Of a stretch of 64,000 bases of DNA, positions 26,768-63,171 are shown one piece after another; positions within the stretch are counted from its first letter, which is position 1, and each line of letters begins with the position of its first letter. The position numbers and the translations under genes were made by a program. The notes beneath the pieces were generated by a model. The model saw nothing but the letters and a program-made list of their open reading frames with translations. It searched no databases and had not been told where the DNA came from. This stretch comes from an uncultured Verrucomicrobiota bacterium (GTDB lineage: Bacteria > Verrucomicrobiota > Verrucomicrobiia > CAZIPW01): positions 77,490 to 141,489 of the forward strand of contig CAZIRU010000001.1 of NCBI GenBank assembly GCA_964541905.1, in the 5' to 3' direction.

Positions 26768-26882
26768 TCTTCAATTATACCCCCGAACGGCGCTTGCACA
26801 ACATTTTTTGCCCCTTTCACCAGCGACTTTTGCGCCGTTTGATGGGTTGACAGTTCCTGCTTGCAGGGAACATCTTTTTGCC

Positions 26883-36538: not shown

Positions 36539-36560
36539 GCTTGGACTGGCGGCCGGAATA

Positions 36561-37877: not shown

Positions 37878-39051
37878 GTCGGGTAAGCTCTTTTATAAGC
37901 GTTTGCTCATAAACTTGCCAGCTTAACTGTTGCGCGCGCTGATAGGCGGCTTCTTGCATGGCCGCAAGCGCCGTACGGTTTTTGATCATCCAGGTGAGTT
38001 TTTCGGTGATGGCCACCGAAGAGCGAATGGGAACAATAAAGCCCTCATGCCCATCGGTAATAAAATCGGGCGCTGCCGTGTTCGCCGTGGTAATGACGGG
38101 CAACCCGCAACTGAGAGCCTCCGTCAAAACGAGCCCAAAACCTTCGAACAACGAGGGAAAGATCAGAACGTCGTGGCGGCGCATCTGCTCGAGGATTTCG
38201 GAGTGTGGGAGGCTGGCTTTATGCGTGTGCGCTGCAATGGCCTTCTCGAGGGCACCGCAGTGCGAAACGGGGGGGCGCCCAATTACGGTCAGCGTCAAGT
38301 GATTGTGCAGCGAAACAACGGCGTCGAAAAGATAGCTCAAGCCTTTGCGCTGCGTAAGCGCTCCCACGTAGAGAACCTTCAACTTTCCAGAGGTATGCCG
38401 GCGCTCCAGAGGTCCCGGCGGTGGCGCGCCATAGGGGATAACCGAAAGGGTTTGCTTAGGCGAAATGAGTCCGGCAAGCGTATGGGCCGTAAAAGACGAG
38501 GGGACAAAGATGCGGTCGGCCATCGCCAGCTCAACGTCTTTGCGGACCAGTTTCTTTTCGGAATCGCGCAAGCCTGTAAGTGTGGGCGCCCACGCAGGAT
38601 TGAGGAGCGCCTCATCACGAAAAAGCTGCTGGGCGGCCTTGTGATGGCCGATGGGCAGCTCGTAGAAAGTTTGCAAAGACAGCTTTTTGGCGGCGAGAAA
38701 GGTCTGGGAGGCCCCATCTTCGTAGCAATATACCCCCTTGAGTTTCCCGTCGCGAGCCAAGCTGGGCAAATCGCGCGCCAACGCCGCATCCAACCGGCGG
38801 TACACCTCGTCTATGGAAGGCCCCACCTTGCCAGGCAGCAAGAGCCTCATCAGCTCGCCCAAAGGATGGGGGCAGATTTTTGAATAGGAGATGGGATAGC
38901 TGCGGCGTGCCGGAAGCGTTCCGAAAAGATTACCCAGCCAACGAGGCCAAGCCAGCGTCGTGTAAAAACTTTGCAGAAGCCCAGCTGCGTCAAGCGCCGC
39001 AAGCGCATGGCGCACGTTGGGATTGCCGGTAGGGTGAGAAAGAATCAGCAT
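37867..39051 (-). CDS. Glycosyltransferase family 1 (GT4).
   Basis: FEGFGLVLTEALSCGLPVITT is the EX7E motif. Confidence 0.8.
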   Translation of the reverse strand: MLILSHPTGNPNVRHALAALDAAGLLQSFYTTLAWPRWLGNLFGTLPARRSYPISYSKICPHPLGELMRLLLPGKVGPSIDEVYRRLDAALARDLPSLARDGKLKGVYCYEDGASQTFLAAKKLSLQTFYELPIGHHKAAQQLFRDEALLNPAWAPTLTGLRDSEKKLVRKDVELAMADRIFVPSSFTAHTLAGLISPKQTLSVIPYGAPPPGPLERRHTSGKLKVLYVGALTQRKGLSYLFDAVVSLHNHLTLTVIGRPPVSHCGALEKAIAAHTHKASLPHSEILEQMRRHDVLIFPSLFEGFGLVLTEALSCGLPVITTANTAAPDFITDGHEGFIVPIRSSVAITEKLTWMIKNRTALAAMQEAAYQRAQQLSWQVYEQTLIKELTRHGN

Positions 39052-39070
39052 GAGAGAAAATTATAGCGGT

Positions 39071-40159
39071 TTATTTTATTTGCGAGCGAGAAGCTTCGAG
39101 ATCTTTCATAAAAGAACGTGCAATCTCTGGCAACAGCATGGGCGACGGCATAGCAATGGTTTCTTGAAGCAACGCGGGGGTTAGTTCTCGAAAAACACCT
39201 TGCGGAAGGGGTTCCTTCTTCGATATGCCGTCGTCCGAGAGCAGAAGAACAGGCAAGCCGTGCTCGCGCGCAGCGGCAATAGCCCCGCTTTTTTGCCAAA
39301 ATGCCGGAGAATAGCCGGAAAGAAAAATATCCAGAGAAGAAAGATAGTAGGAAGCTTCGCGCATCGACATGAAGCCCAACTGTTCCACCTGCAACCGCCC
39401 GCGATACTTCTGAGCAAGCCTCTGCCAACGCACGACAGCTGCATTGGAAAGAGAGCCCCCGGAAAGCAGCGTCAGCTCAAGACCTGTTTGGGACTGTATC
39501 TTTGCACAACTTTCAAAGAAAGGCTCCAGCGGCGTTGCGGCCGAAATGGAGCCAAAAAAGCCCAAGCGGCGGTGATTTCCGCGCACAGGTTTTCGCGAGA
39601 CTGACTCGACAGGAATATTGCCGAACAGCGGAAGCAGTCGGGGGGCAAAACCCTCGATTTTGAGAGTCTCGGCATAAAAAGGAAGCGCCACATGCAAACA
39701 ACAAGGCTTGAGCGCGCGGAAAAGCGAAAGAATAAGGCGCTTTTGCAAGAGCGGCCCCAAAATGCGATATTTGAGTGGTTCTCCACGCCGATTAAACACC
39801 CATAGCTCGTGCGCAAAAATATGAACGGGGGCCAACTGTACAAGGCCGCGAAGTTCCTGCTGAAGGGAAAAGGGGAAGCCTCGCGCTTCAAAGGCAAAAG
39901 GCACAAACTGGAGCGAAATGAAATCGGGTGCAAACCCCGAAAGAAAGTGGCGCAAATGCGCGCGCTTGGCGCTTAGGGGAAGGTGGCGAGGCAACCGCAG
40001 AGAATCCTCGGAGAAAACAGGTGCCCCCGAGCGCTCCGAAAGAGAAATAAAACGAGACTCTACGCCCATGGGCTTAAGCGCCTCGGCCAACCGCAATGTA
40101 TAATCCGCAACACCGTCATGCTCGCGCGAAAGAGACCCTGTTATAAAGAGAATATTCAT
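39071..40159 (-). CDS. Glycosyltransferase (GT-B type).
   Basis: N-terminal MNILFITGS... and the C-terminal LPVLLLSDDG region. The start overlaps the wzt stop. Confidence 0.55.
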   Translation of the reverse strand: MNILFITGSLSREHDGVADYTLRLAEALKPMGVESRFISLSERSGAPVFSEDSLRLPRHLPLSAKRAHLRHFLSGFAPDFISLQFVPFAFEARGFPFSLQQELRGLVQLAPVHIFAHELWVFNRRGEPLKYRILGPLLQKRLILSLFRALKPCCLHVALPFYAETLKIEGFAPRLLPLFGNIPVESVSRKPVRGNHRRLGFFGSISAATPLEPFFESCAKIQSQTGLELTLLSGGSLSNAAVVRWQRLAQKYRGRLQVEQLGFMSMREASYYLSSLDIFLSGYSPAFWQKSGAIAAAREHGLPVLLLSDDGISKKEPLPQGVFRELTPALLQETIAMPSPMLLPEIARSFMKDLEASRSQIK

Positions 40160-41394
40160 CGCAGCGTCCATTCGGCAGGAATCAAAAGCGGCCCATCCGC
40201 TGAAAGGTAGCGCACCGCGCGGCCGAAGAAAAGATGCGGGCGGATATTAAACTCAAAAACCGATGACAATTCATCCACAACGACATCGTCCCGCCGCAGC
40301 TCAAACGACACCGTATAGGGTCCGGGCACTAGACTGGGAAGCGTAAATTCACTGCGGAGCGTAAACTTATCTCCGGTGACTTCAAAATCTTCCATTGCAG
40401 CTTGGGTGCGGAGCGCGAAAAGAGTCGAAGAGCCCGCACGCGCAAAACGCAAAACGAGGTTGAGATGATTGGCAGAACCACAAAGCGCACCATCGATTTC
40501 GATCGCCACACGCTCACCGGTTTCAAAGTCGTGCGGACGAGAGCCGTCGGGCCGCAACATCCTCAACCGCCGCAAGACGCACTCGCGCCCCGCCGTACGT
40601 TTGAAATTATCCAGCGCCACCCCATCGGCCATTTCTTTTGCGACGGCTGCGTGTTGGTAGCGCTCCAGAACATCTTCCAGCGGGCCCCACATCGCTTGAT
40701 GGCCGTTTTCGAGCAAAAGCCCCTTCTGGCAGAAACCCTGCAATAGCGCTGGATTGTGACTGACAAAGACAACCGCACGTCCGGCACGGCCCACCTCGCC
40801 CATTTTGTCGAGGCATTTTTTTTGGAAACGCTGGTCGCCCACCGCCAACACTTCATCCACGATCAATAGCTCCGTTTGCAGGTGCGCCGCGACGGCAAAA
40901 GCCAGTCGCACATACATCCCCGAAGAATAACGTTTGACCGGGGTATCGAGAAATTCTTCGACCTCGGCGAAGTCAACAATTGCGTCAAAGTTTTTGAGAA
41001 TCTCCACGCGGCTCATCCCCAAAAGAGCGCCGTTAAGAAAGATATTTTCGCGGCCCGTCAATTCGGGATGAAAACCGGTCCCCACCTCTAAAAGAGACCC
41101 CACGCGCCCGCGTAAGATCATACGACCATCCGTTGGCAAGGTCACGCGGCTGATGACTTTAAGCAAGGTGCTCTTGCCAGCGCCGTTACGCCCAATCAGG
41201 GCCAGAGTCTCTCCAGCGTTAAGCGTAAAATTCAGATCCTTGAGAGCCCAGAATTCCTTGAGACTCTCATTGCCAAAAAATGAGAGCGGGTTTCGAAAAA
41301 AACGCTCCACTACATAGCGCGCGCCTCGATCGGCGCTTCGGCCGAGCCAAAAACGCTTTGAAATATTTTCGACTTCCAGTAGGGGTTCGCTCAT
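40156..41394 (-). CDS. wzt: Polysaccharide/O-antigen ABC exporter ATP-binding protein (Wzt/TagH-like) with a C-terminal substrate-binding extension.
   Basis: GRNGAGKSTLLK Walker A, the LSGGQ-like SSGMYVRLAF, and an extra C-terminal domain of about 150 aa. Confidence 0.85.
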   Translation of the reverse strand: MSEPLLEVENISKRFWLGRSADRGARYVVERFFRNPLSFFGNESLKEFWALKDLNFTLNAGETLALIGRNGAGKSTLLKVISRVTLPTDGRMILRGRVGSLLEVGTGFHPELTGRENIFLNGALLGMSRVEILKNFDAIVDFAEVEEFLDTPVKRYSSGMYVRLAFAVAAHLQTELLIVDEVLAVGDQRFQKKCLDKMGEVGRAGRAVVFVSHNPALLQGFCQKGLLLENGHQAMWGPLEDVLERYQHAAVAKEMADGVALDNFKRTAGRECVLRRLRMLRPDGSRPHDFETGERVAIEIDGALCGSANHLNLVLRFARAGSSTLFALRTQAAMEDFEVTGDKFTLRSEFTLPSLVPGPYTVSFELRRDDVVVDELSSVFEFNIRPHLFFGRAVRYLSADGPLLIPAEWTLR

Positions 41395-42200
41395 ATTTCA
41401 TCCGCCATGGAGGTTTCGGAGCGCAGAAAAAGAGCGACTCCAAGAAAAAAGAACAAAGTGGAAATAACCATGCACCAGAGCAATGCCTGCAGCGGAAAAA
41501 CCATTTCCGGCAAAACCGCCCAGCGCATCCCCTCAATAACGCCTACCAATGGATTGAGCATAAAGACCGCGCGGAAAGCCTCCGGCACAACCGCCATCGC
41601 ATAACCAACCGGAGTAATAAACATTCCAAACTGAACCGCAAACGGCAGCAAAAATCGCAAGTCGCGGTAGCGCACCAAGAGCGCTGCCACTACTAGCATC
41701 GGCCCCAAAGTCGCATATGCGCCTAGCAAAACCCAAATCGGCAAGGTAAAAAGGCGAAAACCCCATGCGCCCCCGGCCAAGGGAATAGCCGCCAAAAGCA
41801 AAAGTAAATTGAGCGCCAAGTCAACAAAGGCCACCCATAGACTTGAGATGGGGATAATCATTCGGGGAAAATACAATTTTGTCACCAAAGGAATATTCCC
41901 CAGCAAACTTGTGCCGCCCGTTTGCAGACCAAATGTAAAAAGCTGCCAAGGGATCATCGCCGCATAAACCGAAAGGAAACTCGAACCCTCCAACCCCGCC
42001 ACACGACCAAAAACAAAGGAAAGGGCCCCCACGGTCAAAAGGGGCACCAGAAATGCCCACAACACCCCTGCAACGGTCTGTTTGTAGCGCACCGACAGAT
42101 CGCGCCCAGCCAGAAAGTAGAGCAGCTCGCCATACGCGCGCAGGTCCGCCAAATAACGCGGCAAAGAAAGACGGGGGGTGATAACGGTCACACGTTGCAT
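41391..42200 (-). CDS. wzm: ABC-2 type polysaccharide exporter permease (Wzm).
   Basis: Six TM helices. It is 4-bp translationally coupled to wzt. Confidence 0.8.
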   Translation of the reverse strand: MQRVTVITPRLSLPRYLADLRAYGELLYFLAGRDLSVRYKQTVAGVLWAFLVPLLTVGALSFVFGRVAGLEGSSFLSVYAAMIPWQLFTFGLQTGGTSLLGNIPLVTKLYFPRMIIPISSLWVAFVDLALNLLLLLAAIPLAGGAWGFRLFTLPIWVLLGAYATLGPMLVVAALLVRYRDLRFLLPFAVQFGMFITPVGYAMAVVPEAFRAVFMLNPLVGVIEGMRWAVLPEMVFPLQALLWCMVISTLFFFLGVALFLRSETSMADEI

Positions 42201-42266
42201 CAGGAGGACTATTATACAACCTTTTTAGGCTTAACAGCCATCCAAAAATGTGAGATTTTATTAGGT

Positions 42267-43676
42267 GTGCTGCACAATCGTAAAGTTGGGATCCTCGCGC
42301 TCTACGGCGCCTGCGTCAGCTTGGGGCTTCCTCTTTGGTTTATGGCCTACTATTTCGCCTACTCGCTTTTGGGAAGCGGGCTGGTCTGGGAGGGGGCCAA
42401 ACTGGAGCTTTACACCGCCTCACTCCTTTTGGGAACGCTTAGCTATTTTGGACATTACCATCGCTTGGGCTATCGTCGGCACGGGGGGCGTTTACTGTCA
42501 GCCGTCCAAGTTGCCGCATTTCAAACCCTTATTGCCGCACTTGTGCTTTTCGGCGTGGCTTTTGTCGTTCATTCCTTGGCGCTCAGCCGCATATTTGTAC
42601 TCTCTTTTTTGGCATTGAGCTGGGTTGGCTTCATTCTTTCCAACTATTTTGGTCCCTCATGGGTCGCGCGAGTGGCGCTTTGGCATGACGCCCCGCTACG
42701 GACTATTTTGATCGGGTCTTCCAAAGCCGCAGCGCACTTGTGGGGCTGGCTGGAAGGGCAAAAGGATATTGGCGTGAATACCATCGGACTGGTTACCGAA
42801 GAGGAAGCCGATAAGGGACTTATCGGATTGCCGCATCTCGGAAAAGCTTGGGAACTCGAAGAGGTACTCAAAACGAACTCTATCGATCAGGTTATCTTAC
42901 TGGAGGGGATGACTTCGACTGAGCGCTCGCGCAACATTTTTCGGCTTTGCCAGCGCAAGGGCGTGCGAATTCTCATTTACAGTTATTGGGAAGATCTTCT
43001 GAATTACCCACTCTGCCCCATTAGTGAAGGAGAGGCGACCTTTTTTACCTTGGGTGAAGAACCGCTCGAAAACATCGTCAACCGGTTGCTAAAACGAACT
43101 TTTGACATCATCGTGTCTGCTGCCGTTTGCGCGCTTGTCCTGCCATTACTACTCCTGTGGGTTATGAGCCGACAGAAAAAAGAAAGCCCCGGGCCTCTTT
43201 TTTTCAAGCAACTGCGCGCCGGCAAAAACGGGCGGCCGTTTGAGGTACTGAAAATTCGCACGATGCATGTGCGCACAAACGATGCAGCAGACGTTCGTCA
43301 AGCGACACAGGGGGATGAGCGGGTTTATCCATTTGGAGAATGGCTGCGCAAAACAAGCCTCGACGAGCTGCCGCAGTTTATCAATGTCTTGCGCGGACAG
43401 ATGAGCGTGGTAGGGCCACGCCCGCATATGCTGGCGCATGACGCGAAGTTTGCGGAGTTTGTGGACGTTTATCGCTCGCGCTTTTTTGTAAAGCCCGGCA
43501 TCACGGGGTTGGCGCAGGTAAATGGCTATCGAGGGGAAATCGAAAACGCCGAGCAGCTCGAAAAAAGAATCAAATATGACATCGAATACATCACCAGCTG
43601 GTCGTTCTGGCTGGATGTGGTCATCGTTTTAAAAACAGCGTGGTTTGTCCTCCGGCCTCAAAAGAAAGCGTACTAA
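42267..43676 (+). CDS. wbaP: Undecaprenyl-phosphate sugar phosphotransferase (WbaP/WcaJ-type initiating transferase).
   Basis: C-terminal bacterial sugar-transferase domain (KRTFDIIVS..., PRPHMLAHD, GITGLAQVNGYRGE). GTG at 42267 is chosen because the first ATG falls inside TM1. Confidence 0.8.
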   Translation: MLHNRKVGILALYGACVSLGLPLWFMAYYFAYSLLGSGLVWEGAKLELYTASLLLGTLSYFGHYHRLGYRRHGGRLLSAVQVAAFQTLIAALVLFGVAFVVHSLALSRIFVLSFLALSWVGFILSNYFGPSWVARVALWHDAPLRTILIGSSKAAAHLWGWLEGQKDIGVNTIGLVTEEEADKGLIGLPHLGKAWELEEVLKTNSIDQVILLEGMTSTERSRNIFRLCQRKGVRILIYSYWEDLLNYPLCPISEGEATFFTLGEEPLENIVNRLLKRTFDIIVSAAVCALVLPLLLLWVMSRQKKESPGPLFFKQLRAGKNGRPFEVLKIRTMHVRTNDAADVRQATQGDERVYPFGEWLRKTSLDELPQFINVLRGQMSVVGPRPHMLAHDAKFAEFVDVYRSRFFVKPGITGLAQVNGYRGEIENAEQLEKRIKYDIEYITSWSFWLDVVIVLKTAWFVLRPQKKAY

Positions 43677-43678
43677 AA

Positions 43679-44986
43679 ATGGCAACCTATCTTTTTTTCA
43701 CACAGGGCGCAGATGCGCAATGGATGGAGTTACTCAAACATTTTGCGGCGCTCCACGACAGCGAAACGCGCCTTCATTCGGCCCTAACCGCCACGCAGGC
43801 TACATCAGCGCTAGGGGGAGAAAAGCCAGCGGTTGTCGTGTGTTTTGAGGATTTCACCCAACGTGTGGCGGTAAAGTACAAGCACGCCTCACGGGCAATT
43901 GTCCATGTGGTGCGTATTCGAAAAACCGGCGAGCAAATCGCAAAAACGGCCGAGAACAAAGCCTTTCACTGCCGCGAGTGCTCGATCAATTTTTTCTATG
44001 ACCGCCAAGGTTACGAAAAAAACTGGGCGTTAAAAAGAGAGCGGCGATTTCTGGCGCTGGACAATCCCTTCTGCCTCGAAAGCCAAAAAGCAAATCGGAA
44101 CGTTCTTTTTTCATATGCGCTTGAAGCGCTCCTTCGGCCTTGCGCGTGCCCGACAAATGAGCAGCTAAAAGAGGATTTTGGCCATATCGAGCTAAGCTAC
44201 GTCACCCATTTTTATTTCAACCAAAAAAGTCCGAAAAGTATTTTTGACTTGCTTGAGACATATGCACGCTACGACCGATCGTTGCGCGAAAAGATTCTTT
44301 TTGTCCTCGTCGATGACGGCTCGAGCGTCGAGTACACCGTACCAGAACTTCCTCTCAATATCTTGTGGCTAAGAATCACTCGGGATATTCCATGGAATCA
44401 GGCCGGCGCGCGCAATCTTGGCATGACCTACGCCAAGTCGGACAAGGTCGTTTTGACGGACATCGATCATATTTTCCCCGAAGAAACCCTGCGCGGTCTA
44501 GTGAAAGCGCGACCCTGCGGGAGACGTTTTTACAAATTCCATCGCAAAACGGACGAAGGAAAGCTCCGTAAGGGACACCCCAATATTTTCTACCTTTCAC
44601 GCGGCCGGTTTTTTGAACTCTTCGGCTACGACGAGGAATTTGGTGGGGCCTATGGCGCGGAAGATTACCGTTTTGTTAAATATCAGAAGGCTTGCGGCTC
44701 GTGGCAGCGCTATTTTCCCAAACGCTATTTCATCCACGAGAACAAAGTTGATCGCGAAAAGTCGTATCACACACTTACCCGCGACTTGAGCCTCAATACG
44801 CCTATCGATTCGCGCAAGCGCGCCGAAATGGAAACTTATGGGCACAAGCTTGGCCACAGCCGAATGTTTTTGAATTTTGAATGGCAACTGGTAAGCAAAC
44901 AGTTTTTAAGGCCTCGCGAAACCCCAAAGATTGATAAGACGTGGAAGTACCTTTCATGGGTGCGGACACTTTTCCCCACCAAATAA
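43679..44986 (+). CDS. Hypothetical protein with a GT-A (family 2-like) glycosyltransferase core.
   Basis: LFVLVDDGSS and TDIDHIF (DxD-like) motifs. Confidence 0.5.
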   Translation: MATYLFFTQGADAQWMELLKHFAALHDSETRLHSALTATQATSALGGEKPAVVVCFEDFTQRVAVKYKHASRAIVHVVRIRKTGEQIAKTAENKAFHCRECSINFFYDRQGYEKNWALKRERRFLALDNPFCLESQKANRNVLFSYALEALLRPCACPTNEQLKEDFGHIELSYVTHFYFNQKSPKSIFDLLETYARYDRSLREKILFVLVDDGSSVEYTVPELPLNILWLRITRDIPWNQAGARNLGMTYAKSDKVVLTDIDHIFPEETLRGLVKARPCGRRFYKFHRKTDEGKLRKGHPNIFYLSRGRFFELFGYDEEFGGAYGAEDYRFVKYQKACGSWQRYFPKRYFIHENKVDREKSYHTLTRDLSLNTPIDSRKRAEMETYGHKLGHSRMFLNFEWQLVSKQFLRPRETPKIDKTWKYLSWVRTLFPTK

Positions 44987-46918
44987 TTATTCATAGCGTA
45001 GTGCAACAATGGGCGAAAGTGCGGAAGCTTTGAGCGCAGGCCAAAGCCCAAAGACAATACCAATAACGAACGAAAAACTCGTCGCCAGAATGACTGCAAA
45101 AAGCGAAACCGAGACTGCCCAGCCCAAAACAACCGCCATCAGAACGGAGACTCCGGCGCCCAAAGCCACCCCAAGAAGGCCGCCAATAAGCGAAAGCAGA
45201 ACCGACTCAAATAAAAATTGGAATAAAATATCTCGCCGCGTGGCTCCCACAGCCTTTCGCAACCCAATCTCTTTCGTGCGTTCTACAACCGCCACCAACA
45301 TAATATTCATAATTCCAATGCCGCCAACTACCAATGAAATAGCAGCAACCGTTCCCAAAAGCGCCGTCATTGTATTTGTCATTGAAGAAAGAGTCGCTTT
45401 GATATCAGCCATGTTGCGAATTTCAAAAGCGGAATCACTACCAACGGTACGATGCCGGCGATTAAGAAGCGTTTCTATTTGTTCTTGTACCGCATCGGAG
45501 TATTTTGCCTCCGCAACGTCCACATAAATGCCATCTAAAAAATCCCGCCCTAAAAGCCGCCTCATGCCCGTCTTAAGCGGGATGATAATTACATCATCCT
45601 GATCGCGTGGACCGCTGACGCCGCGTACCGGCAGCACGCCGATTACGTTAAAGTAGGTCTCGTTGACGCGAATGGTCTTTCCCACGGGATCGGCCCCACC
45701 CCAGAGCGTTTTTACAATCGTTGCGCCCAAAAGCGCGACTTTGGCTCCCGACTGCTCCTCTTGCGGCGAAAAAAACCTACCCGTCAAAGGCGTCAAATTG
45801 CGGATTTTTTCGTAAGGCCGTTCAACAGCCTCCACGCTCGTGTTGGCATTTTGGCCGTCGGCTATAACCTGCACACGCGACGTAACTACTCCGCTAACGC
45901 CGTTGAGATGAGGAATCTGAGTCCGGATGGCAAGGACATCCTCATCCGAAAGCCGTGTTGTCGAACCACTCTCAAGCGCAACCCCTCCCGCGCGCGATGT
46001 CCCCGGGCGCACCAATATCATATTGGATCCCAAAGAAGCCAGCTGCCTTTGCATGGTGGCGCTTGCGCCCTCTCCCAGCGAAAGCATGGCAATGACGGAA
46101 GCGATGCCGATAAGAATCCCGAGCACCGAAAGGAACGAACGCGTGCGGTGACTCCAAATCGAAATAAGCGCCTGTTTGAGATAATCCAGAAAGTGGATCG
46201 CCTCTCGATTTGGGGGAGAAGGAGCGGCGGCCTCCTTGCAGACATTGGCCGCAGGCGCCGAATCGCTCAAGATTTTGCCATCGCGCATGACGATAATCCG
46301 GCGCGCATAGTGGGCCATTTCCTCTTCGTGCGTCACTAAAATAATCGTTTTCCCCGCCTGATTGAGCGCGCGAAGGTGTTCCATGATTTCGACTTTGGTG
46401 CGGCTATCGAGATTGCCGGTAGGCTCATCTGCAAAAATAATCTGTGGATCGTTGACAAGCGCGCGGGCAATCGCAACTCGTTGCTGCTGTCCTCCCGACA
46501 TCTCATTGGGTTTGTGCGCGGCCCGCTCTGCAAGCCCCACGCGCTCTAGAGATTCGCGAGCCTTCCGCGCGTCGCGGGAGTTGCCGCTATACAAAAGCGG
46601 AAGCGCCGCATTCTCGAGCGCAGTCAATTTTGGCAGGAGAAAAAATTGCTGAAAGACAAAGCCAAAATAATGGCTACGCAGGCCCGCCAAGCGCCGGCTG
46701 TCTAGGGAGGCCACATCTTCGCCAAAGAGCTTATAGGCGCCCGAGCTTGGTGTGTCCAAGAGCCCCAGAATTTGCATGAGCGTGCTTTTCCCCGAACCTG
46801 ACGCACCCATGATGGCAACAAACTCCCCCGGGCAAATCGAAAGCGATACTCCGTCAAGCGCCCGGATTTCCTCGGCCCCGGGCGTATATATTTTTCGGAT
46901 ATCGCGCAGTTCTATCAT
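44987..46918 (-). CDS. macB: MacB-type ABC transporter with fused ATPase and FtsX-like permease.
   Basis: [11 protein letters not shown] and [15 protein letters not shown], plus a C-terminal 4-TM permease with a large periplasmic domain. Confidence 0.9.
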
Positions 46919-46928
46919 CTGGCCTTCG

Positions 46929-47849
46929 TTATTTTTTCCCTCCGCGGAACTCCGGCATGAACGGATTTTTGCCGCCCGATTCTGGGTTGAGGTTAAGTTG
47001 TCTTGAGCGCGAAACCACCCGCGAGTTTTCGCTCAAGCCCTGAAGAATCTCCACGCGATCATTGGTGATAATTCCCGTCTGCACTCCCACGACTTGCGGC
47101 TTCCCTTTTTCATCCAAAAGTGTAACTGTTGCGGGGTCGCTGGCGAGTTCGACGGCCTCGAGCGGCAATGTAAGTGCCCCTTCCTTGCTAAGCGTCTCAA
47201 AAGCAATCTGGGCGTTCATTCCCGAGCGGAAAAAATCAGGCGCGTCAACAGGAAGCAAATCCACCTTATATACCGTCACATTGCTGGCAACGGTCGATTC
47301 ATAATAGATATGCGAAACAGCAGCCTCAACTCCCGCTTTCGGGAAGGCATCAAGCGTTACTATCGCGCGCTGACCTTCGCAGATGCTGCTAATATCGGTT
47401 TCGTCCACTTGCGCCCGAACGATCAGCTGATCTGAAAGGACGACAATGGCGTCCGTGCTGGCCACTACTTGTCCAGGTTGGAGCGTCGCGACAATAACCG
47501 TCGCTTCCATCGGAGAAACCAGCTGAATGGGTTTGTAAACTTCCTCCCAATAGGCCAGCTCCTCGGCCCCCTGACCCTGCGCCGCATCAATGAGAGTGGC
47601 TCGATCGGTCGAGCTCAAGGTTGCCAGCGGATCGCCTTTTTGGACCTGCTGCCCCTCAGCAACCAACATCTGCTCCACGCGTCCGGCCACAGGAGGACGT
47701 ATTTCCAGCCGATTCCGCGGGGTCACCACACCCGTAGTGGTGAGCGTTTGGGTAAGCGTCATGCGCAGGGGGGTAATCGTTGCGTTGCCGCCGCCGAGAG
47801 CAAACAAGAGGCTACTTGAGCACAACCATACTGCGAGAATTTTTTTCAT
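46929..47849 (-). CDS. Efflux periplasmic adaptor subunit (HlyD/MacA family).
   Basis: Signal peptide and the biotinyl/lipoyl-like and beta-barrel segments typical of membrane fusion proteins. Confidence 0.8.
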   Translation of the reverse strand: MKKILAVWLCSSSLLFALGGGNATITPLRMTLTQTLTTTGVVTPRNRLEIRPPVAGRVEQMLVAEGQQVQKGDPLATLSSTDRATLIDAAQGQGAEELAYWEEVYKPIQLVSPMEATVIVATLQPGQVVASTDAIVVLSDQLIVRAQVDETDISSICEGQRAIVTLDAFPKAGVEAAVSHIYYESTVASNVTVYKVDLLPVDAPDFFRSGMNAQIAFETLSKEGALTLPLEAVELASDPATVTLLDEKGKPQVVGVQTGIITNDRVEILQGLSENSRVVSRSRQLNLNPESGGKNPFMPEFRGGKK

Positions 47850-49105
47850 AAATTAATCTCCGGCAAAGGCACGCCTTTGGCTTGCTGCCACACCGCCTCG
47901 GCTCGGAAGGCCGCCGCACGCGCATTAAGCTCGGCTTGTTTGGAAGAAACAAAATTGTCTTCGATGATCGTCCAGTTGTCGTAGGAAAGAAGACCTACGC
48001 CATACTGCGCCTGCGCAATGCGCTCTCGCTCGGTATTTGCCTCAAGGAAAGCCTTCTGCACTTCCGCCGCGTCTATTGCGTTTTGGAAATCCTCATAGGC
48101 ACCTCGTAAAGCCGTAAAGAGGGTATTATAGGCAGAGCGCGTCGAGGCCTCTGCGGCAATGATCGCCGAACGCGCCTTTTGCACCCCCGCTTCGCGCGCA
48201 AAACCATCAAAGAGCGTATAGCTCACGCTTGCAGAAGCCGAAAGTTGATTGTCTTCAGGGGGAATATCGTTGGAAGAGCGCCCCACGCCGGCTGAAACGT
48301 TCAAGCTAGGCCAATAGGCAGCTTGCGCCTGCTTGAGACCCTCCCGCGCCGCGCGTTCGGCGGCAAGCGATCTTAAATAGGTGGGGTGGACTTTTGCCAA
48401 AAGTTCAAAGTCTGGCGACTCAGGAAGCTCGAACGCACTTGAAATTGCCTTTACAAAAAAATCACGCGTCAGCGGCAACCCCATCGCCTTGCTCAGCGCC
48501 ACTTGCGCCTGGCGGAGATTGCGGCGCGCCGCCGAAAGATTGGCGCGAGCTTGCGCGGTATTCGCGCGCGCCGAGAGGAGCGCCCCGCGGTGCTCAATCC
48601 CCGATTCATAGCGCAACGAAACCAGTTTTTCGTTGGAAAGGCGCAGGTTCAAAATCGACTCGGAGAGCACAATATTTTCCTGCGCCTGCCAGAGCGTCAC
48701 AAAAGCCGTGCGCAGCTCGTAACGCAGTTGCGCCGAGGTGACCGTGTACGCGCGGCGCTGGACTTCCCGCTCGGCTTGCGCTTGGCGCGTTTGCGAACGA
48801 TTGGCCCCCGCATCAAAGAGCGTCATCGAAGCGTTTAGTCCCACCGACGAAGCATTTTGCGCGGCAGCATCCCCGCGTTTCGTGCGACTAAGGGAAGCTT
48901 CGGCGGAAAGTTGCGGAATCTCGCTGGCACGCGTTTGGACAACCGTAGCCTCTGCTTGCGTAATACTTTCCACGGCCACGATCAAATCGGGATGATAACG
49001 CGCCGCCTCAGCCAAGCACTCCTGCCAATTCATTTCCTCAGCACCCCACAATGGAGCCAAGCCAAAGATAAGCAGTAGAATTCCCGCACGCTTCATTTCT
49101 TCCAT
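47846..49105 (-). CDS. TolC-like outer-membrane efflux protein.
   Basis: Two-repeat OEP architecture with a signal peptide. It overlaps the adaptor gene by 4 bp. Confidence 0.8.
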   Translation of the reverse strand: MEEMKRAGILLLIFGLAPLWGAEEMNWQECLAEAARYHPDLIVAVESITQAEATVVQTRASEIPQLSAEASLSRTKRGDAAAQNASSVGLNASMTLFDAGANRSQTRQAQAEREVQRRAYTVTSAQLRYELRTAFVTLWQAQENIVLSESILNLRLSNEKLVSLRYESGIEHRGALLSARANTAQARANLSAARRNLRQAQVALSKAMGLPLTRDFFVKAISSAFELPESPDFELLAKVHPTYLRSLAAERAAREGLKQAQAAYWPSLNVSAGVGRSSNDIPPEDNQLSASASVSYTLFDGFAREAGVQKARSAIIAAEASTRSAYNTLFTALRGAYEDFQNAIDAAEVQKAFLEANTERERIAQAQYGVGLLSYDNWTIIEDNFVSSKQAELNARAAAFRAEAVWQQAKGVPLPEINL

Positions 49106-49181: not shown

Positions 49182-49257
49182 GGGCGGCCAAGGGGATTTG
49201 AACCCCCGACCCCCAGATCCACAATCTGGTGCTCTAACCGACTGAGCTATGGCCGCC
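49182..49257 (-). tRNA. tRNA-His (anticodon GTG). G-1 is not encoded.
   Basis: Hand-folded. Acceptor GGCGGCC/GGCCGCC, D-arm TAGCTCAGTCGGTTAGAGC, anticodon stem CCAGA/TCTGG with loop TTGTGGA, T-arm GGGGGTTCAAATCCCC, discriminator C. The genomic position -1 is C. Confidence 0.85.
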
Positions 49258-49384
49258 GTAAAGACACTTATTATACCCTCCCGCACCTTCAAAAGTCCAC
49301 CAAAAAAGAGGGCGTGGAGGACGCCCTCTTTCTGTTTGCGATTGATTTCATCCCGCCAGCGAACCGATCGTTGGCAAATTGCTT

Positions 49385-49900
49385 TTAGGTCTCGGGGAGA
49401 TTTTGACCATCTTCGGGCTTGGGAGCGGCATTGTAATGCCCATCCACCACTAGCTTGAGGTTGCCAATATCGGCTTGAATTTGGACGGTATTAACCCCCG
49501 TTCCCTCGTTGACGCCAACGGCCATCTTAAGCGGAATGTAGGGCGTCACCTTAATGCCGCGCACCGAGAATTTGTTTTGCTGGTTATCAGCCAGCTCTAC
49601 CACCAGCGAGGTGATATACTCCGCCAACCGAGGATCGGCCAGCTTCGACTTCAAAAGCGCCTGCCGTACTTGTAGATAGTAGAAAAAGTAATGCGATACA
49701 TTAAGTTTTTCCCCTTGTTGCTTGAGTTCCTCAAAGAGCCGCCGGCTATCCAAAAGCGGCTGGCGCAAGTTTTGATCCGAAAGGATCATGCCGAGGTCAT
49801 CGCGCGAAACTAGACTTTTTCCAAACGCTCGGTGGATAAAAGCGACATCCGCTCCCGTAAACGGACCGCTCGAGTTATAGTGCTCCTCGTTAAACTTCAT
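49385..49900 (-). CDS. Hypothetical protein, 171 aa, immediately downstream of the 1117-aa gene.
   Basis: Co-directional and a possible operon partner. No motif recognised. Confidence 0.4.
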   Translation of the reverse strand: MKFNEEHYNSSGPFTGADVAFIHRAFGKSLVSRDDLGMILSDQNLRQPLLDSRRLFEELKQQGEKLNVSHYFFYYLQVRQALLKSKLADPRLAEYITSLVVELADNQQNKFSVRGIKVTPYIPLKMAVGVNEGTGVNTVQIQADIGNLKLVVDGHYNAAPKPEDGQNLPET

Positions 49901-50094: not shown

Positions 50095-53000
50095 CTATTT
50101 AAGCTTAGGCGGCGCGCCGATCGTACCATTAAGGAAGCGGAGATATTCAGGAGAAGAGGCTTCTTCGAATTTCTTCTGACAAAAGCTCAGCTTTGCCTCC
50201 CAATCTCCTCGCTGGGCCGGATTGGCTTCCACGTGCCTCTTAATGGAGGATAAATGGCGCCCCCATAGGGCCGCATCAATCTTTTGCTTGGCCTCCAGCC
50301 GCTCCTGATACCAGCGACTCTCAAGCATACTGCTCAAAGAGAACAACTTACGGAAAGTATCGTCGTTGAGCGTCGCGCCTTCATAGGAGCCCCTGGCCAT
50401 AAGCGTCAAGAGGGCTTTTAAAGGCGGCACCGCCAGTTCGATGGAACCATCGGCAAAGTACAGCTCCGCCACGCGCTGATGCGTATCGGTGATTGTCTGG
50501 ACGGAATCGGCAAAGAGGCCCTTGTCCTGCAGCTCCGGCCGCAACATTTCGGGAGTTAAAACCACCCCGGGATTGTTAAAAACTCGTCCGAAGAATACCC
50601 GCTCGAATTGCGCCGTCATGCGCCACCCTAAGCGGCTTGCTGGGACATTTTTACCATTGTACTGAAAATCGCGGCAGCGCTCAAGATGGCCGTTCTTGAT
50701 AAGGAAAGCCGGATCGCGCTCAGCAACGCTCATCCGCGAAAAAACTTCTGGAATTAGGAGCGATATGTCGTGATTAACCTTATAATGTGGCCCCACATAC
50801 GCCGTCGATGTCACAAAGGTCGGACATTGCGTCAAAAGGGCGCTCACAAAGGCCGAATTGAGGTCGATAATAGGCAAAAGCGCGTTAAATGGACCTTTCG
50901 TCAGCGCTCCTTCGGAACCCGCTCCCGTCGTTGAAGGGGATTTGCCCGTCATCGAGGAAATAAACTCCATGAAAAGCTCCGGCAACTCCATGTAATGGAT
51001 GGGGTTATAAGAGCAAAGCGCAGGCGAACCCTTTTCCGGAGGGTTATTCCGACGGCCAGGGACTATAAGATTGACGGGGGTATAGAGCGGACTTGCCGGC
51101 TTTAGCCGGCGCGAAAGCCGCATGCCGACTTCGGCCAGATAGCGCCCGCGCGGATTGAGCAAATCGGGGCGGTTTTGTAAATAACGCGGATTTTTAGAGG
51201 GAGCCCCGTCCACCAAGCGAGGATTGGCGGAGCTCACGACAAAGGCTGGGCCCTCTTTTGACTCAGCATGAGCACGCAAAAGCTCCTTCATGGCGGGCGT
51301 AAAGTAATCAAAACGGATGGCGTCATCCACCATTGTCTGGGCGTCAGCCTTCGTAAGCGGCTGAAAATTGGATATAAAATTCCCATTTCCGGCCATATCT
51401 TTTTCGGCCTGCTTATCATAGCCGCGCACAATGGCATCGTCTGGACGTTGAAAAAGTCGGTACTCGCAGTTGCCAACAAATTTGAGACCCACGACATTTT
51501 CCGGAAGTGGCAAATTCGAGAAATCGCGCGCCGGCAAGACAACCGAAGCCGTAATGTCATCTTCCATTTGGATCTTCGTAGCGGGGTAAAAGTCTTTACG
51601 CGTCCCCAAGGTGCGCCAAGCGCCATCGGGCTCGTAGCCCACGCGGAGGAAATTGGTGCTCAGTCGCGCATTCTTGTATTTTAACTCGTGTCCGGGCATT
51701 CCGTTTATCAAATCCACGCTAAAGCGCTTTTTCCAATCTGCTTCCCAGCTCGGCTTATAGTAACGCTTGATCACCAAGAGCATTTCCAGAACGTGCGACG
51801 GGATCGAGCGGATAAAATCATTATAACCGTCCGTATACTCCTCGGAGTGCGTAAAGAGCTTGATCACCGAACCCAACGAAAACTTGGGCTCCAAAATGCT
51901 CGGGTGGCGCTTGGTGCGGCGGACGGGGTCTCGATAGATTGTCGAATAGTCGAAGTTCAAGAGCATATCGATTTGCTCCATGTCGGACTTGAAGTCCATG
52001 ACAAAGACAGAACCGATAATGCAGGCATCGTTGATGGATTTGGAGATCTCGGATTTGCCGCCGCCCGAAACGGTCGAGGGTTTGTGGCACAAACACGGCT
52101 CCGCCACGGTGCCAATAATGCGCCAACGGCGGTTTTCAGCAGGCTTGAGCATCTCAATCTTGTAGCCGGAGGGCAGAACGTAAGTGGTGTTGGGCTTCAA
52201 CCGAATGGAGTGGGCGGCGCCCAAACTATCCGACCAGCTTATCGACTGGTCGTAAAGCCTGAAGCGCACATTTTGCGGAACATAAAAAATATTATCATAG
52301 CGTTTATCGGAAGCATACCCTTCTGGGTGCGCATCTGCCAGCGGCCCCAGACATTCCAAGGCCTCGGCATAGTTGTGATCTTCGGGGGTATGCACAACCT
52401 CATCCAAAGAAAATTCCTCGCCCAAGTCGTAGGCAGCAAAGGTTAGCGCTCCGCCGGCGTGCTCTTCCTCGCACATCCCAAGCAAGTTCGCCGCATAGCT
52501 AAGCTGGGTCTTGACCTCTTTTTTGCAATAGCCGAAATAATTGTCGGCGATGACCGTTACGATCACGCCGCATTCGTCGCGCGAGGTCAGCTTGAAGGCT
52601 TTTCCGTCATTGTAGAGCTCCTTTTCGTCTTTATAGCACATACCATCGCGCCGCTGGCGTTCGGTAGCTTTGTCAAAATGGGGGAGCCCAACCTGCTTTT
52701 TGGTCAAACAGGTCAGGTGGGGCGCCAAGATGATGCATCCCGTGTGGCCGCTCCAATGTTCAACGTCCAAGGCCGCATTATTTTCGCGCGGATTGCCGGC
52801 GTTCCCAAAGACCGATTCAACAAAATCGAGGTTGCAAACCAGGCTCCCGGGAACAAGGAAGAGCGTTTCCATCGACTTGGCATAGGCAAAGCCTGGCACC
52901 TCGGGCGAAACCATCGGCCTCAAATACAGCGACGCCCAAACGGAAGCCCCCGCCGCCTCAGTAGCAGTATAGGGCAAGCGCAAAAAAGACGCGGGGGCAT

Positions 53001-53448
53001 TGAGCGCCACTTTCAAGATGGCCGCGAACGTCTCAAGCGGCACCACCTTCTTGTCGCCCGGTATAGGCAATCCGCCTTCGGCCACATGGAAAACGCCTTC
53101 GGTCGTACGGCGATCGCTTTTGGGATTATGCAAAATACCCTGTTTTAAACGATAACTTGTGACTGTCTCGCTCTTGTACTCATCCTGTGTTGCGGGCAAC
53201 GAAAGCGTTCGCGAAAGCCCAAACAAATCCATGTCGAAACACTGGACAGGCAACATCGTTGTATCCGCCCCCAAAATTGATTTCAGATACTCGTTGATGC
53301 GGCCCGCGATGGGGGAGGGCGACGCAAGGGCCTTCAGCTCCTCCAGTCGCGTGCGGATGATCGCCTCAAGCTCAGCTGGCGGCGGCATCCAGTTCTTGCC
53401 CTCTTCGCAATCAAAACCAACTCGTCTCTTATAGTCAAAAGCCATCAC
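50095..53448 (-). CDS. Large conserved hypothetical protein, 1117 aa. A speculative assignment is PPi-type phosphoenolpyruvate carboxykinase-like.
   Basis: Uninterrupted ORF of 3.35 kb. No TM segments or repeats. A P-loop-like STVSGGGKSEISKS resembles the PEPCK kinase-1a loop. The size matches PPi-PEPCK, at about 1100-1150 aa. Product unverified. Confidence 0.7.
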   Translation of the reverse strand: MMAFDYKRRVGFDCEEGKNWMPPPAELEAIIRTRLEELKALASPSPIAGRINEYLKSILGADTTMLPVQCFDMDLFGLSRTLSLPATQDEYKSETVTSYRLKQGILHNPKSDRRTTEGVFHVAEGGLPIPGDKKVVPLETFAAILKVALNAPASFLRLPYTATEAAGASVWASLYLRPMVSPEVPGFAYAKSMETLFLVPGSLVCNLDFVESVFGNAGNPRENNAALDVEHWSGHTGCIILAPHLTCLTKKQVGLPHFDKATERQRRDGMCYKDEKELYNDGKAFKLTSRDECGVIVTVIADNYFGYCKKEVKTQLSYAANLLGMCEEEHAGGALTFAAYDLGEEFSLDEVVHTPEDHNYAEALECLGPLADAHPEGYASDKRYDNIFYVPQNVRFRLYDQSISWSDSLGAAHSIRLKPNTTYVLPSGYKIEMLKPAENRRWRIIGTVAEPCLCHKPSTVSGGGKSEISKSINDACIIGSVFVMDFKSDMEQIDMLLNFDYSTIYRDPVRRTKRHPSILEPKFSLGSVIKLFTHSEEYTDGYNDFIRSIPSHVLEMLLVIKRYYKPSWEADWKKRFSVDLINGMPGHELKYKNARLSTNFLRVGYEPDGAWRTLGTRKDFYPATKIQMEDDITASVVLPARDFSNLPLPENVVGLKFVGNCEYRLFQRPDDAIVRGYDKQAEKDMAGNGNFISNFQPLTKADAQTMVDDAIRFDYFTPAMKELLRAHAESKEGPAFVVSSANPRLVDGAPSKNPRYLQNRPDLLNPRGRYLAEVGMRLSRRLKPASPLYTPVNLIVPGRRNNPPEKGSPALCSYNPIHYMELPELFMEFISSMTGKSPSTTGAGSEGALTKGPFNALLPIIDLNSAFVSALLTQCPTFVTSTAYVGPHYKVNHDISLLIPEVFSRMSVAERDPAFLIKNGHLERCRDFQYNGKNVPASRLGWRMTAQFERVFFGRVFNNPGVVLTPEMLRPELQDKGLFADSVQTITDTHQRVAELYFADGSIELAVPPLKALLTLMARGSYEGATLNDDTFRKLFSLSSMLESRWYQERLEAKQKIDAALWGRHLSSIKRHVEANPAQRGDWEAKLSFCQKKFEEASSPEYLRFLNGTIGAPPKLK

Positions 53449-60995: not shown

Positions 60996-61925
60996 ATGAA
61001 GATCTTCCTTTATTGCGACGAGAGCGACAATACCCCCTTGCGCAAACGATTGGAGCGCCATTTTGGGAAAACTGCCATACACCAAGTGGAGGCAAAAGCC
61101 ATTTGCGCAGGAATCTTGGCCTCAAAAAAGCCCGATTTACTGGTTTTCGGCGGCGGAATGACGCAAAATTTCTCCAAATCGTTGGAGCGCAAGGGGAACC
61201 AAGCTATCCGCGACTATGTTCACGCGGGGGGATGTTACTTGGGCATTTGCGCGGGAAGTTACTACGCGCACGCCACAATTGACTGGTTGGCGGGATTCGC
61301 GGGGGCCTTTGAAGGTTTTGCCGAAGAAGAGGCGGCGCTTGGCCTTATTGAAGGGGCCGTGGCGCGCGGCCCTGCTCTTATCGAACGCGACGCGCCGCCG
61401 GCCTGCGCCTCGGGTTGCGTACAAGTCATTGACGAAGAAGGTGTTTTTCATAGCGCTTTCTACCACGCAGGGCCCCTCTCCGACCTCTCCGCCTGCGATC
61501 CGTCAAATGTCGCCGGAGTCGCATTTTTCACGGAGATGACAGAAGCCCCCGCCATTGTTGAGGCCTACTATGGGAGGGGTCTCGTGGTAGCGAGCAGCCC
61601 GCATATTGAATATGAAGAGGCTTTGTTGCGGCAAATTGTAAAAAACGGAAGGATCGTCGCGCCCAATGGTGTTTCTCTCCAGGAAAGCGCCCAAGCGGTT
61701 TTGTCGCGCGGATTGCAAAATTTTTGCAACAATCCAAAAAAGATGCTGCGTTTAAGCACTATTTTAATAGAGAAGGTTTTTGAAAGGCTCGAAACCTTTG
61801 TAACTCTTTCAAAAAAAGAGACCTACGGGGTGCGCGTGGCAGACCAGCTGGGCACTCTCCCGCCATTTATCCACCGACAATCCACCAAACTACGGCGACA
61901 GACCTTGCCCCCGGAGCTTAGCTGA
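60996..61925 (+). CDS. Class I glutamine-amidotransferase-like (BPL_N/DJ-1-like fold) hypothetical protein.
   Basis: LLVFGGG...GGCYLGICAGSYYA nucleophile-elbow-like segment. Assignment is tentative. Confidence 0.45.
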   Translation: MKIFLYCDESDNTPLRKRLERHFGKTAIHQVEAKAICAGILASKKPDLLVFGGGMTQNFSKSLERKGNQAIRDYVHAGGCYLGICAGSYYAHATIDWLAGFAGAFEGFAEEEAALGLIEGAVARGPALIERDAPPACASGCVQVIDEEGVFHSAFYHAGPLSDLSACDPSNVAGVAFFTEMTEAPAIVEAYYGRGLVVASSPHIEYEEALLRQIVKNGRIVAPNGVSLQESAQAVLSRGLQNFCNNPKKMLRLSTILIEKVFERLETFVTLSKKETYGVRVADQLGTLPPFIHRQSTKLRRQTLPPELS

Positions 61926-63171
61926 GCTTTTTTTCCACCTGCGGGGCGTTAATTCGGACAAAACCAGGCAATCCGCCATCAAATGGAACGGCAACTTCTC
62001 CGGCAATTAAGGGCGCGGCATATTTGTGAAACTGGTAGTTCAGCGAAATGCCATCTTCATTAATCCATTGCAGCGGAAAGGGTTTCACTTGATTCGCAAT
62101 TTCCTTCAAGTCTGCCAAGCCCGTTTCGCAGTGATATTCGACGGTCTCAGATCGCAAAAGTGTAACCATTTTGCCGCTTTCTCCAGTCACAGCCGCCTGA
62201 ACAGCCGCGACTCCGGCCATATACGCCTCGTCGCTATCGGTCTTGGAGGCACAATGCGCCGCGCAGCGTTGGGCATAGCCTAATTTGGTAATTTTTGAGC
62301 TAATTCCTGTCGCTTGTTCAATAATACCTTTCAAATACTCGGCGTTGCCGCCACCTGCAAAAACCGCATGGCCAAAGGCATCCGTCTTGGTGGGGGCGGA
62401 AACGTAATTGCCACTCTCGTCCACGAGCCCTTCGGCCACAATAACCATGCAATATTTTTCCGTTTTAAGGACCGCCTGAACATCGGCAATGAACTTTTGC
62501 GCATTAAAGGCAACTTCCGGCATCAAGATGATGTGGGGGGCATCATGGGGGTGATCTTTGCGTTTGGCCAAGGAGGCTCCCGCGGCAACCCAGCCCGCTG
62601 TGCGACCCATGACCTCGACAATGGAGACCAGATCGTGGTTGCCCATGCCCTGATGGTCGCAACTTAGCTCACGAATAGTGGAAGCAACATATTTAATAAC
62701 GCTGCCATAGCCTGGCGTATGGTCGGTAATCGGGAGGTCGTTATCCATCGTCTTAGGGAGCCCAATAACGCGCAGAGCGTAGCCCTTGGCTTTGGCGAGC
62801 GCGTCAATTTGCATGGAAGTATCTTGGCTATCATTGCCGCCGATATAGAAAAAATAGCGGATATTGTGGGCCTCAAAAACCTTTAAAAGCGTATCGTAAT
62901 CTTCTTGCTTTTTGAGCTTGAAGCGGCAGGAACCCAGCGCCGGCCCCGGGGTATAGCGCAAGCCGCGCACAACAAGCTGGCTTTCTTCTGCCAAATTGAC
63001 GATATCTTCACTTAAAATGCCCTGGATGCCATTTCGTCCTCCGTATATTTCTTCTATTACATCTTCATGGTTAAGGGCTTCTGTAATAACACCCGCCAAT
63101 GTTGCATTAATAACAGCCGTTGGCCCTCCGGATTGGGCGACCAAACAATTTCCTACAAGGTTTTCAGACAT
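61918..63171 (-). CDS. pfp: Pyrophosphate-dependent 6-phosphofructokinase (PPi-PFK, Pfp).
   Basis: AQSGGPTAVINATLAGV and a GGDGS-type core. Its length of 417 aa and the motifs typical of the PPi-utilising group are noted from memory. Confidence 0.8.
   Translation of the reverse strand: MSENLVGNCLVAQSGGPTAVINATLAGVITEALNHEDVIEEIYGGRNGIQGILSEDIVNLAEESQLVVRGLRYTPGPALGSCRFKLKKQEDYDTLLKVFEAHNIRYFFYIGGNDSQDTSMQIDALAKAKGYALRVIGLPKTMDNDLPITDHTPGYGSVIKYVASTIRELSCDHQGMGNHDLVSIVEVMGRTAGWVAAGASLAKRKDHPHDAPHIILMPEVAFNAQKFIADVQAVLKTEKYCMVIVAEGLVDESGNYVSAPTKTDAFGHAVFAGGGNAEYLKGIIEQATGISSKITKLGYAQRCAAHCASKTDSDEAYMAGVAAVQAAVTGESGKMVTLLRSETVEYHCETGLADLKEIANQVKPFPLQWINEDGISLNYQFHKYAAPLIAGEVAVPFDGGLPGFVRINAPQVEKKLS

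Follow-up and report, generated by a model that had tools for sequence, protein, structure and literature searches.

The 64,000-nucleotide stretch of DNA analysed here (hereafter the window; contig CAZIRU010000001.1 of assembly GCA_964541905.1, positions 77,490 to 141,489) derives from an uncultured Verrucomicrobiota bacterium. On its minus strand it carries a gene at 50095-53448 that very probably encodes a pyrophosphate (PPi)-dependent phosphoenolpyruvate (PEP) carboxykinase (PEPCK), an enzyme also named PEP carboxytransphosphorylase (EC 4.1.1.38). The encoded protein belongs to the PPi-PEPCK family, has its fold and retains every motif that is invariant in it. An earlier note on the same DNA had proposed this identity on the basis of length and one motif, a guess that it declared speculative itself and that is now borne out by full-length matches with E = 0 to two enzymes of solved structure.

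Family assignment and conserved motifs

The gene is a single open reading frame (ORF), as previously described from its 3.35-kb span:

50095..53448 (−): PPi-dependent PEPCK gene (EC 4.1.1.38 family), single ORF, 1117 amino acids counted from the GTG at 53448

A phmmer search against all chain sequences of the PDB returned exactly two matches, both full length and with E = 0. These are AiPEPCK of Actinomyces israelii (6K31; 1170 bits, query residues 31-1116 against chain residues 51-1152) and the PPi-dependent PEPCK of Propionibacterium freudenreichii (8E1U, a malate complex; 1120 bits, query residues 50-1115 against chain residues 61-1129). Because these two structures are matched at E = 0 over approximately 1085 residues, the ORF is far beyond what would be expected by chance. 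A profile built from 18 homologs reached 1587 and 1545 bits with 6K31 and 8E1U, respectively, and gave no match beyond these two in the PDB at E values up to 10. The size of the protein agrees with the assignment: a single polypeptide of 1116-1117 amino acids is about twice as long as ATP- or GTP-dependent PEPCKs and compares with 1153 and 1131 amino acids in the two PDB chains, as anticipated from the length of approximately 1100-1150 amino acids quoted earlier for PPi-PEPCKs.

Homologs are widespread, with more than 8000 clusters in a large protein database, many of them in Verrucomicrobiota. Among the matches listed, all homologs carry a precomputed PF26300 annotation and are 1097-1195 amino acids long, and many bear the JGI label ‘phosphoenolpyruvate carboxykinase (diphosphate)’. 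The database protein identical to the one studied here (P0001) is likewise annotated with PF26300 (PEPCK_PPi_lobe_2, precomputed). Our local Pfam-A hmmscan and the NCBIfam scan of the 1117-amino-acid protein returned no family, and the previous statement that no common domain is recognisable is therefore true of these two scans only. Given the precomputed PF26300 annotation, the empty local Pfam result presumably reflects a gap in the library copy and not biology. NCBIfam contains no model at all for the PPi-PEPCK family, which explains why NCBI records name the homologs hypothetical proteins. Where the NCBIfam models and the local copy of Pfam give this gene no assignment, the analysis thus supplies a confident functional name. 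The family itself is well known, with two crystal structures, its own EC number (4.1.1.38) and the Pfam entry PF26300, and the gene adds a member to it. Its founding sequences, according to PMC8100219, which refers to Chiba et al. 2015, are the PPi-PEPCK1-3 of Entamoeba histolytica.

Motif conservation was read from an alignment of 120 homologs that included the window protein. Seven blocks are invariant or nearly so in this alignment and identical in both 6K31 and 8E1U (x and dots denote variable positions):

53086..53130 (−), residues 107-121: N-terminal Arg-containing motif HNPKSDRRTTEGVFH, conserved in 6K31 and 8E1U; block HNPxxDRRTTxGxFH (107-121)
52504..52545 (−), residues 302-315: Tyr / Lys-Lys motif DNYFGYCKKEVKTQ, same in 6K31 and 8E1U; block DNYxGYCKKExKT (302-314)
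52447..52470 (−), residues 327-334: acidic/His motif EEEHAGGA, conserved in 6K31 and 8E1U; block EEEHxGG (327-333)
52036..52077 (−), residues 458-471: P-loop of the kinase-1a type STVSGGGKSEISKS, presumed pyrophosphate/phosphate-binding loop; block TVSGGGKSEISK (459-470)
51415..51453 (−), residues 666-678: Asp motif FQRPDDAIVRGYD, identical in 6K31; block FQRPDxA..GxD (666-678)
51034..51057 (−), residues 798-805: Arg/Asn motif GRRNNPPE, same in 6K31 and 8E1U; block GRRxN (798-802)
50878..50955 (−), residues 832-857: Gly/Ser-rich loop SMTGKSPSTTGAGSEGALTKGPFNAL, columns S832-L857 invariant or nearly so; block S.TGxSPS..GAGSEGA.TK..FN (832-855)

In the N-terminal motif, H107, N108, P109, D112, R114, T115, T116, G118, F120 and H121 are invariant, and HNPKSDRRTTEGVFH may form a substrate-binding loop. 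The invariant columns of DNYFGYCKKEVKTQ are D302, N303, Y304, G306, Y307, K309, K310, E311, K313 and T314; this motif would correspond to the Y...KK motif with which ATP- and GTP-dependent PEPCKs bind substrate and metal. EEEHAGGA, with E327, E328, E329, H330, G332 and G333 invariant, contains the putative metal-ligand His. The Asp motif is invariant at F666, Q667, R668, P669, D670, A672, G676 and D678 and could represent the kinase-2-like metal-binding Asp pair known from E. coli PckA; its residue Val674 is shared with 6K31 and replaced by His in 8E1U. G798, R799, R800 and N802 are invariant in GRRNNPPE, which is a candidate for the PEP/oxaloacetate-binding residues, and SMTGKSPSTTGAGSEGALTKGPFNAL is a probable mobile lid of the active site. 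AiPEPCK shares with the window protein the blocks VSGGGKSEISKS, DNYxGYCKKEVKTQ, EEEH, LFQRPDDAIVRGYDKQ and GRRNNPPE as well as an identical lid loop.

Within the P-loop, the stretch T459-K470 (TVSGGGKSEISK) is invariant in the 120 homologs and the same in 6K31 and 8E1U. An hhalign comparison of the family profile with E. coli PckA, whose residues 246-288 were verified against PDB entries, produced one local alignment, which pairs S458-S471 with the kinase-1a segment F247-D260. This pairing (E 0.071) is not significant alone, and it is the only segment that was aligned. At the level of the motif, the resemblance to the kinase-1a loop of PEPCKs that had been pointed out before thus holds.

The mainstream clade has 423 columns with a conservation of at least 95%, and the window protein retains 375 of them. 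It deviates in the other 48, mostly by conservative exchanges that are common to its own sub-clade, and none of these positions lies inside a motif.

Predicted structure and comparison with known PEPCKs

A first AlphaFold (AF2) run with 18 sequences yielded a mean predicted local distance difference test value (pLDDT) of 58.8 and a predicted template modelling score (pTM) of 0.41, and the fold search with this model counts as a sequence-level check only. The second run, based on the 120-sequence alignment, reached a mean pLDDT of 88.8 and a pTM of 0.90, and this model was compared with the PDB using Foldseek. The best matches were again 8E1U (template modelling (TM) score 0.90-0.92, 48-49% identity, approximately 1115 aligned columns) and 6K31 (TM score 0.88-0.89, 50% identity). 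The comparison with the enzymes of A. israelii and P. freudenreichii that had been suggested as a check therefore gives agreement in both sequence (E = 0) and modelled structure (TM score 0.88-0.92). Residues 834-855, within the Gly/Ser-rich loop, are the sole segment with a pLDDT below 50 in the otherwise confident model.

Compared with AiPEPCK (1153 amino acids), the window protein is approximately 35 residues shorter, both its N-terminus and its C-terminal helical region being reduced in length. In addition, its host belongs to the Verrucomicrobiota and not to the Actinomycetota.

Nucleotide-dependent PEPCKs followed at a distance in the Foldseek ranking. The next-best match was the ATP-PEPCK of A. 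succiniciproducens (1YVY; E 2.4e-4, probability 1.00), and after it came rat and bacterial GTP-PEPCKs (probability 0.93-0.99), all of the nucleotide-dependent enzymes being 8-9% identical to the window protein. This pattern agrees with published statements that PPi-PEPCKs have no sequence similarity to ATP- and GTP-PEPCKs, yet share their fold (PMC8100219; PMC10441589). What the window protein has in common with the ATP-PEPCKs (E. coli PckA 1AQ2, 1YVY) and the GTP-PEPCKs (rat cytosolic 2QEW, Corynebacterium glutamicum 2ZCI) is the fold of the catalytic core (Foldseek probability 0.93-1.00, TM score on the target 0.42-0.54) and a P-loop of the kinase-1a type. It differs from them in being twice as long, in its extra lobes and in the spacing from the P-loop to the Asp motif, which is approximately 190 residues in the window protein and approximately 10 in PckA. 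Neither the Pfam scan nor the PDB profile search revealed homology to them in sequence, and the phosphoryl donor would differ as well, being PPi and not a nucleotide.

Metabolic context and competing explanations

We infer the PPi specificity, the residue roles and the in vivo direction of the predicted enzyme. The reaction would be PEP + CO2 + Pi <-> oxaloacetate + PPi, carried out by a catalytic core of the PEPCK type that is enlarged by family-specific lobes. In this scheme the kinase-1a-like P-loop (VSGGGKSE) would bind PPi/Pi, the Lys, His and Asp motifs would hold divalent metals, and the Gly-rich mobile loop (834-855) would close over the active site.

A second PPi enzyme is encoded in the same window, as the earlier note had stated:

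61918..63171 (−): PPi-dependent 6-phosphofructokinase (NF010675, PF00365; motifs GGNDS and LPKTMDND)

This protein matches NF010675 ‘diphosphate--fructose-6-phosphate 1-phosphotransferase’ with 521.8 bits (cutoff 273), and all models of ATP-dependent phosphofructokinases (PFKs) stay below their cutoffs. GGNDS and PKTMDND, which cover the Asp/Lys positions of donor specificity, are motifs that we take, following published PFK work, to be a signature of PPi use. GGNDS stands in place of the usual GGD(G/D)S of PFKs, its Asn coming before the Asp that is diagnostic for PPi. An operon linking the PEPCK and PPi-PFK genes was considered and rejected, since 8.5 kb and eight unrelated genes separate the two and, in relatives, no PFK gene occurs in the flanks of the PEPCK gene. 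They thus belong to one genome without forming an operon. No further enzyme of the PEP/oxaloacetate node and no further PPi enzyme was found in the 64-kb window.

Other genes hint at a succinate/propionate pathway. These are a succinate/butyryl-CoA (acyl-CoA):acetate CoA-transferase gene at 1501-2988 (+), which matches NF053666 with 815 bits and the YgfH subfamily with 755 bits, and a gene for the succinyl-CoA synthetase alpha subunit SucD at 26709-27860 (+), next to which no ORF for a beta subunit was found. In one relative (L085:1-4045), methylmalonyl-CoA mutase is encoded approximately 5 kb from the PPi-PEPCK ortholog. The context resembles that of P. freudenreichii, a propionate/succinate fermenter that has a PPi-PFK, too.

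We lean towards a fermentative role, in which the enzyme would carboxylate PEP to oxaloacetate as sugars are fermented to succinate or propionate. The energy of the phosphoryl bond would be kept in the form of PPi, which PPi-PFK could then spend in glycolysis. The PPi-PFK and the succinate-pathway genes in the context support this proposal, and PPi-PEPCK has been proposed as a supplier of PPi for PPi-dependent glycolysis in Entamoeba and in P. shermanii (Propionibacterium) (PMC8863071).

The same enzyme might instead be mainly gluconeogenic or cataplerotic and convert oxaloacetate and PPi to PEP and CO2, in which case PPi from biosynthesis would save ATP and PPi-PFK, too, would operate towards gluconeogenesis. 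This is a tentative but serious alternative, as the reaction can run both ways and the enzyme has been proposed to act cataplerotically in the methanotroph Methylotuvimicrobium (PMC6860931). Modelling of Propionibacterium regards the PPi enzymes as permitting gluconeogenesis (PMC7650540). The window also encodes the glycogen branching enzyme GlgB, which would suit this direction. On the other hand, the succinate-pathway genes in the window and beside the ortholog of the relative, together with the PPi supply classically ascribed to the enzyme in Propionibacterium and Entamoeba, speak for carboxylation; the sequence itself decides no direction.

Far less probable is a divergent paralog with altered chemistry, such as the use of another phosphoryl donor or acceptor, or a main activity as oxaloacetate decarboxylase or pyruvate-forming enzyme. 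The distinct sub-clade of the window protein, with its shorter N-terminus and 48 clade-typical substitutions, could be taken to point in this direction. However, the family-invariant motifs are all intact and the deviations mostly conservative and outside the motifs, the identity to the two characterised enzymes is at the level of ordinary orthologs, and the fold matches with a TM score of approximately 0.9.

A nucleotide-dependent PEPCK (ATP or GTP) of unusual length, for which the common fold of the catalytic core and the kinase-1a-type P-loop might speak, is already effectively refuted by the 8-9% identity, by the double length, by the lack of any Pfam PEPCK_ATP / PEPCK_GTP match (PF01293 / PF00821) in the Pfam and NCBIfam scans and by a PDB profile search that yielded the two PPi enzymes only.

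Together, the PEPCK and the PPi-PFK mark this uncultured Verrucomicrobiota lineage as having a PPi-linked central carbon metabolism. This is relevant for metabolic reconstruction, with ATP yield and the incorporation of CO2 into succinate or propionate as examples. It opens no new question, as the family, its structures and the co-occurrence with PPi-PFK have already been described, including in the PVC superphylum, where PPi-PEPCK, PPi-PFK and PPDK were tabulated together for a planctomycete (PMC7716947).

Gene start, host lineage and neighbouring genes

In the public database, the identical protein (P0001) is called from the ATG at 53388, which gives 1097 amino acids and is preceded by a GAGGG box 9 nt upstream. 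Within 53386-53448 (−), the 20 codons ahead of this ATG encode MAFDYKRRVGFDCEEGKNW, and the N-terminal peptide reads FDYKRRVGFDCEEGKNW. The closest relatives have N-termini that align with MAFDYKRRVGFDCEEGKNW, namely MDYKQQLGFDLESGQNW, MDYKKQIGFDPETGLN and MDFKRQLGFDPERGQN, and the relatives that match the peptide FDYKRRVGFDCEEGKNW begin with MDYKQQLGFD or MDFKRQLGFD. In the 120-sequence AlphaFold model, the stretch ahead of the ATG at 53388 has pLDDT values of 75-89. As the upstream peptide is both conserved at the N-termini of relatives and modelled, the long start is favoured. The true start is most likely the ATG at 53445 (1116 amino acids), or the GTG at 53448, and the public gene call is probably truncated by approximately 19 residues.

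Among GTDB representatives, the best genomic matches of the PEPCK are 54-58% identical and mostly from Verrucomicrobiota, with others in Abditibacteriota, Spirochaetota, Gammaproteobacteria and Bifidobacteriaceae. Its closest relatives are metagenome proteins of 62-70% identity that share its short N-terminus and the DoxX-PEPCK synteny. They form a sub-clade with the window protein that is 62-70% identical internally and 56-58% identical to mainstream Verrucomicrobiota PPi-PEPCKs. The best named relatives of TypA (9083-10924) are Opitutaceae and Verrucomicrobiota (approximately 65%). Based on the relatives of TypA and PEPCK, the host belongs to an uncultured and fairly divergent lineage of the Verrucomicrobiota.

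Two further features follow the PEPCK gene on the same strand:

49385..49900 (−): 171-amino-acid conserved protein, function not assigned; own GGAGG ribosome-binding site; 194 nt downstream of the PEPCK gene
49182..49256 (−): tRNA-His (GTG); own promoter-like site TGGACT-18-TATAAT, 10/12 matches

The co-directional 171-amino-acid ORF had been noticed before and was recovered at its expected position. The distance of 127 nt then given between the PEPCK gene and the tRNA-His had to be corrected, as it is in fact 838 nt; the ORF that lies 128 nt from the tRNA is the one for the 171-amino-acid protein. A terminator consisting of a GC-rich hairpin and a T-run, GAGGGCGTCCTCCACGCCCTCTTTTTT (49270-49340, −), ends this gene, and the promoter-like site of the tRNA-His comes immediately after it.

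The 171-amino-acid protein gave no match in Pfam, NCBIfam or the PDB. It has only 19 close homologs (76-100% identity), and a profile search retrieved 188 remote relatives (representatives) of 160-250 amino acids; in none of these does the homologous part carry a Pfam domain. Across the lineage it is 76-90% identical where the PPi-PEPCK is only 63-70% identical. For one organism pair, the L083 ortholog shows 85% identity, compared with 63% for PEPCK and 78% for TypA. The orthologs are located as follows:

L083:13511-14023: ortholog, directly after the PEPCK gene
L088:6001-6498: ortholog, directly after the PEPCK gene
L089:4062-4472: ortholog, directly after the PEPCK gene
L087:6001-6522: ortholog, after a carboxyltransferase gene

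Including the window, the gene thus directly follows PEPCK in four loci. One could imagine that its product is an unrecognised partner or regulator of PPi-PEPCK and that the two genes form a conserved module at the PEP-oxaloacetate node in this Verrucomicrobiota clade. We regard this as improbable. A PEPCK-specific partner was largely rejected because the gene comes after a carboxyltransferase gene in L087 and remote homologs follow an oxidoreductase of the DAO family, with DoxX nearby in L092. The variety of upstream genes suggests that the adjacency is lineage synteny around DoxX, and the 171-amino-acid protein is probably not specific to PEPCK.

Further observations concern the remainder of the window. 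A cluster for polysaccharide synthesis and export at 34170-46918 contains several genes for GT4 and GT2 glycosyltransferases, a Bac_transf priming transferase and an ABC-2 transporter, and after it comes a MacAB-TolC-like efflux trio at 44987-49105. The AT skew is unusually high (0.26) at 36-40 kb. Finally, a 325-amino-acid leucine-rich-repeat protein encoded at 14479-15456 (−) shows internalin/SlrP-like matches that are weak and fall far short of the curated cutoffs.

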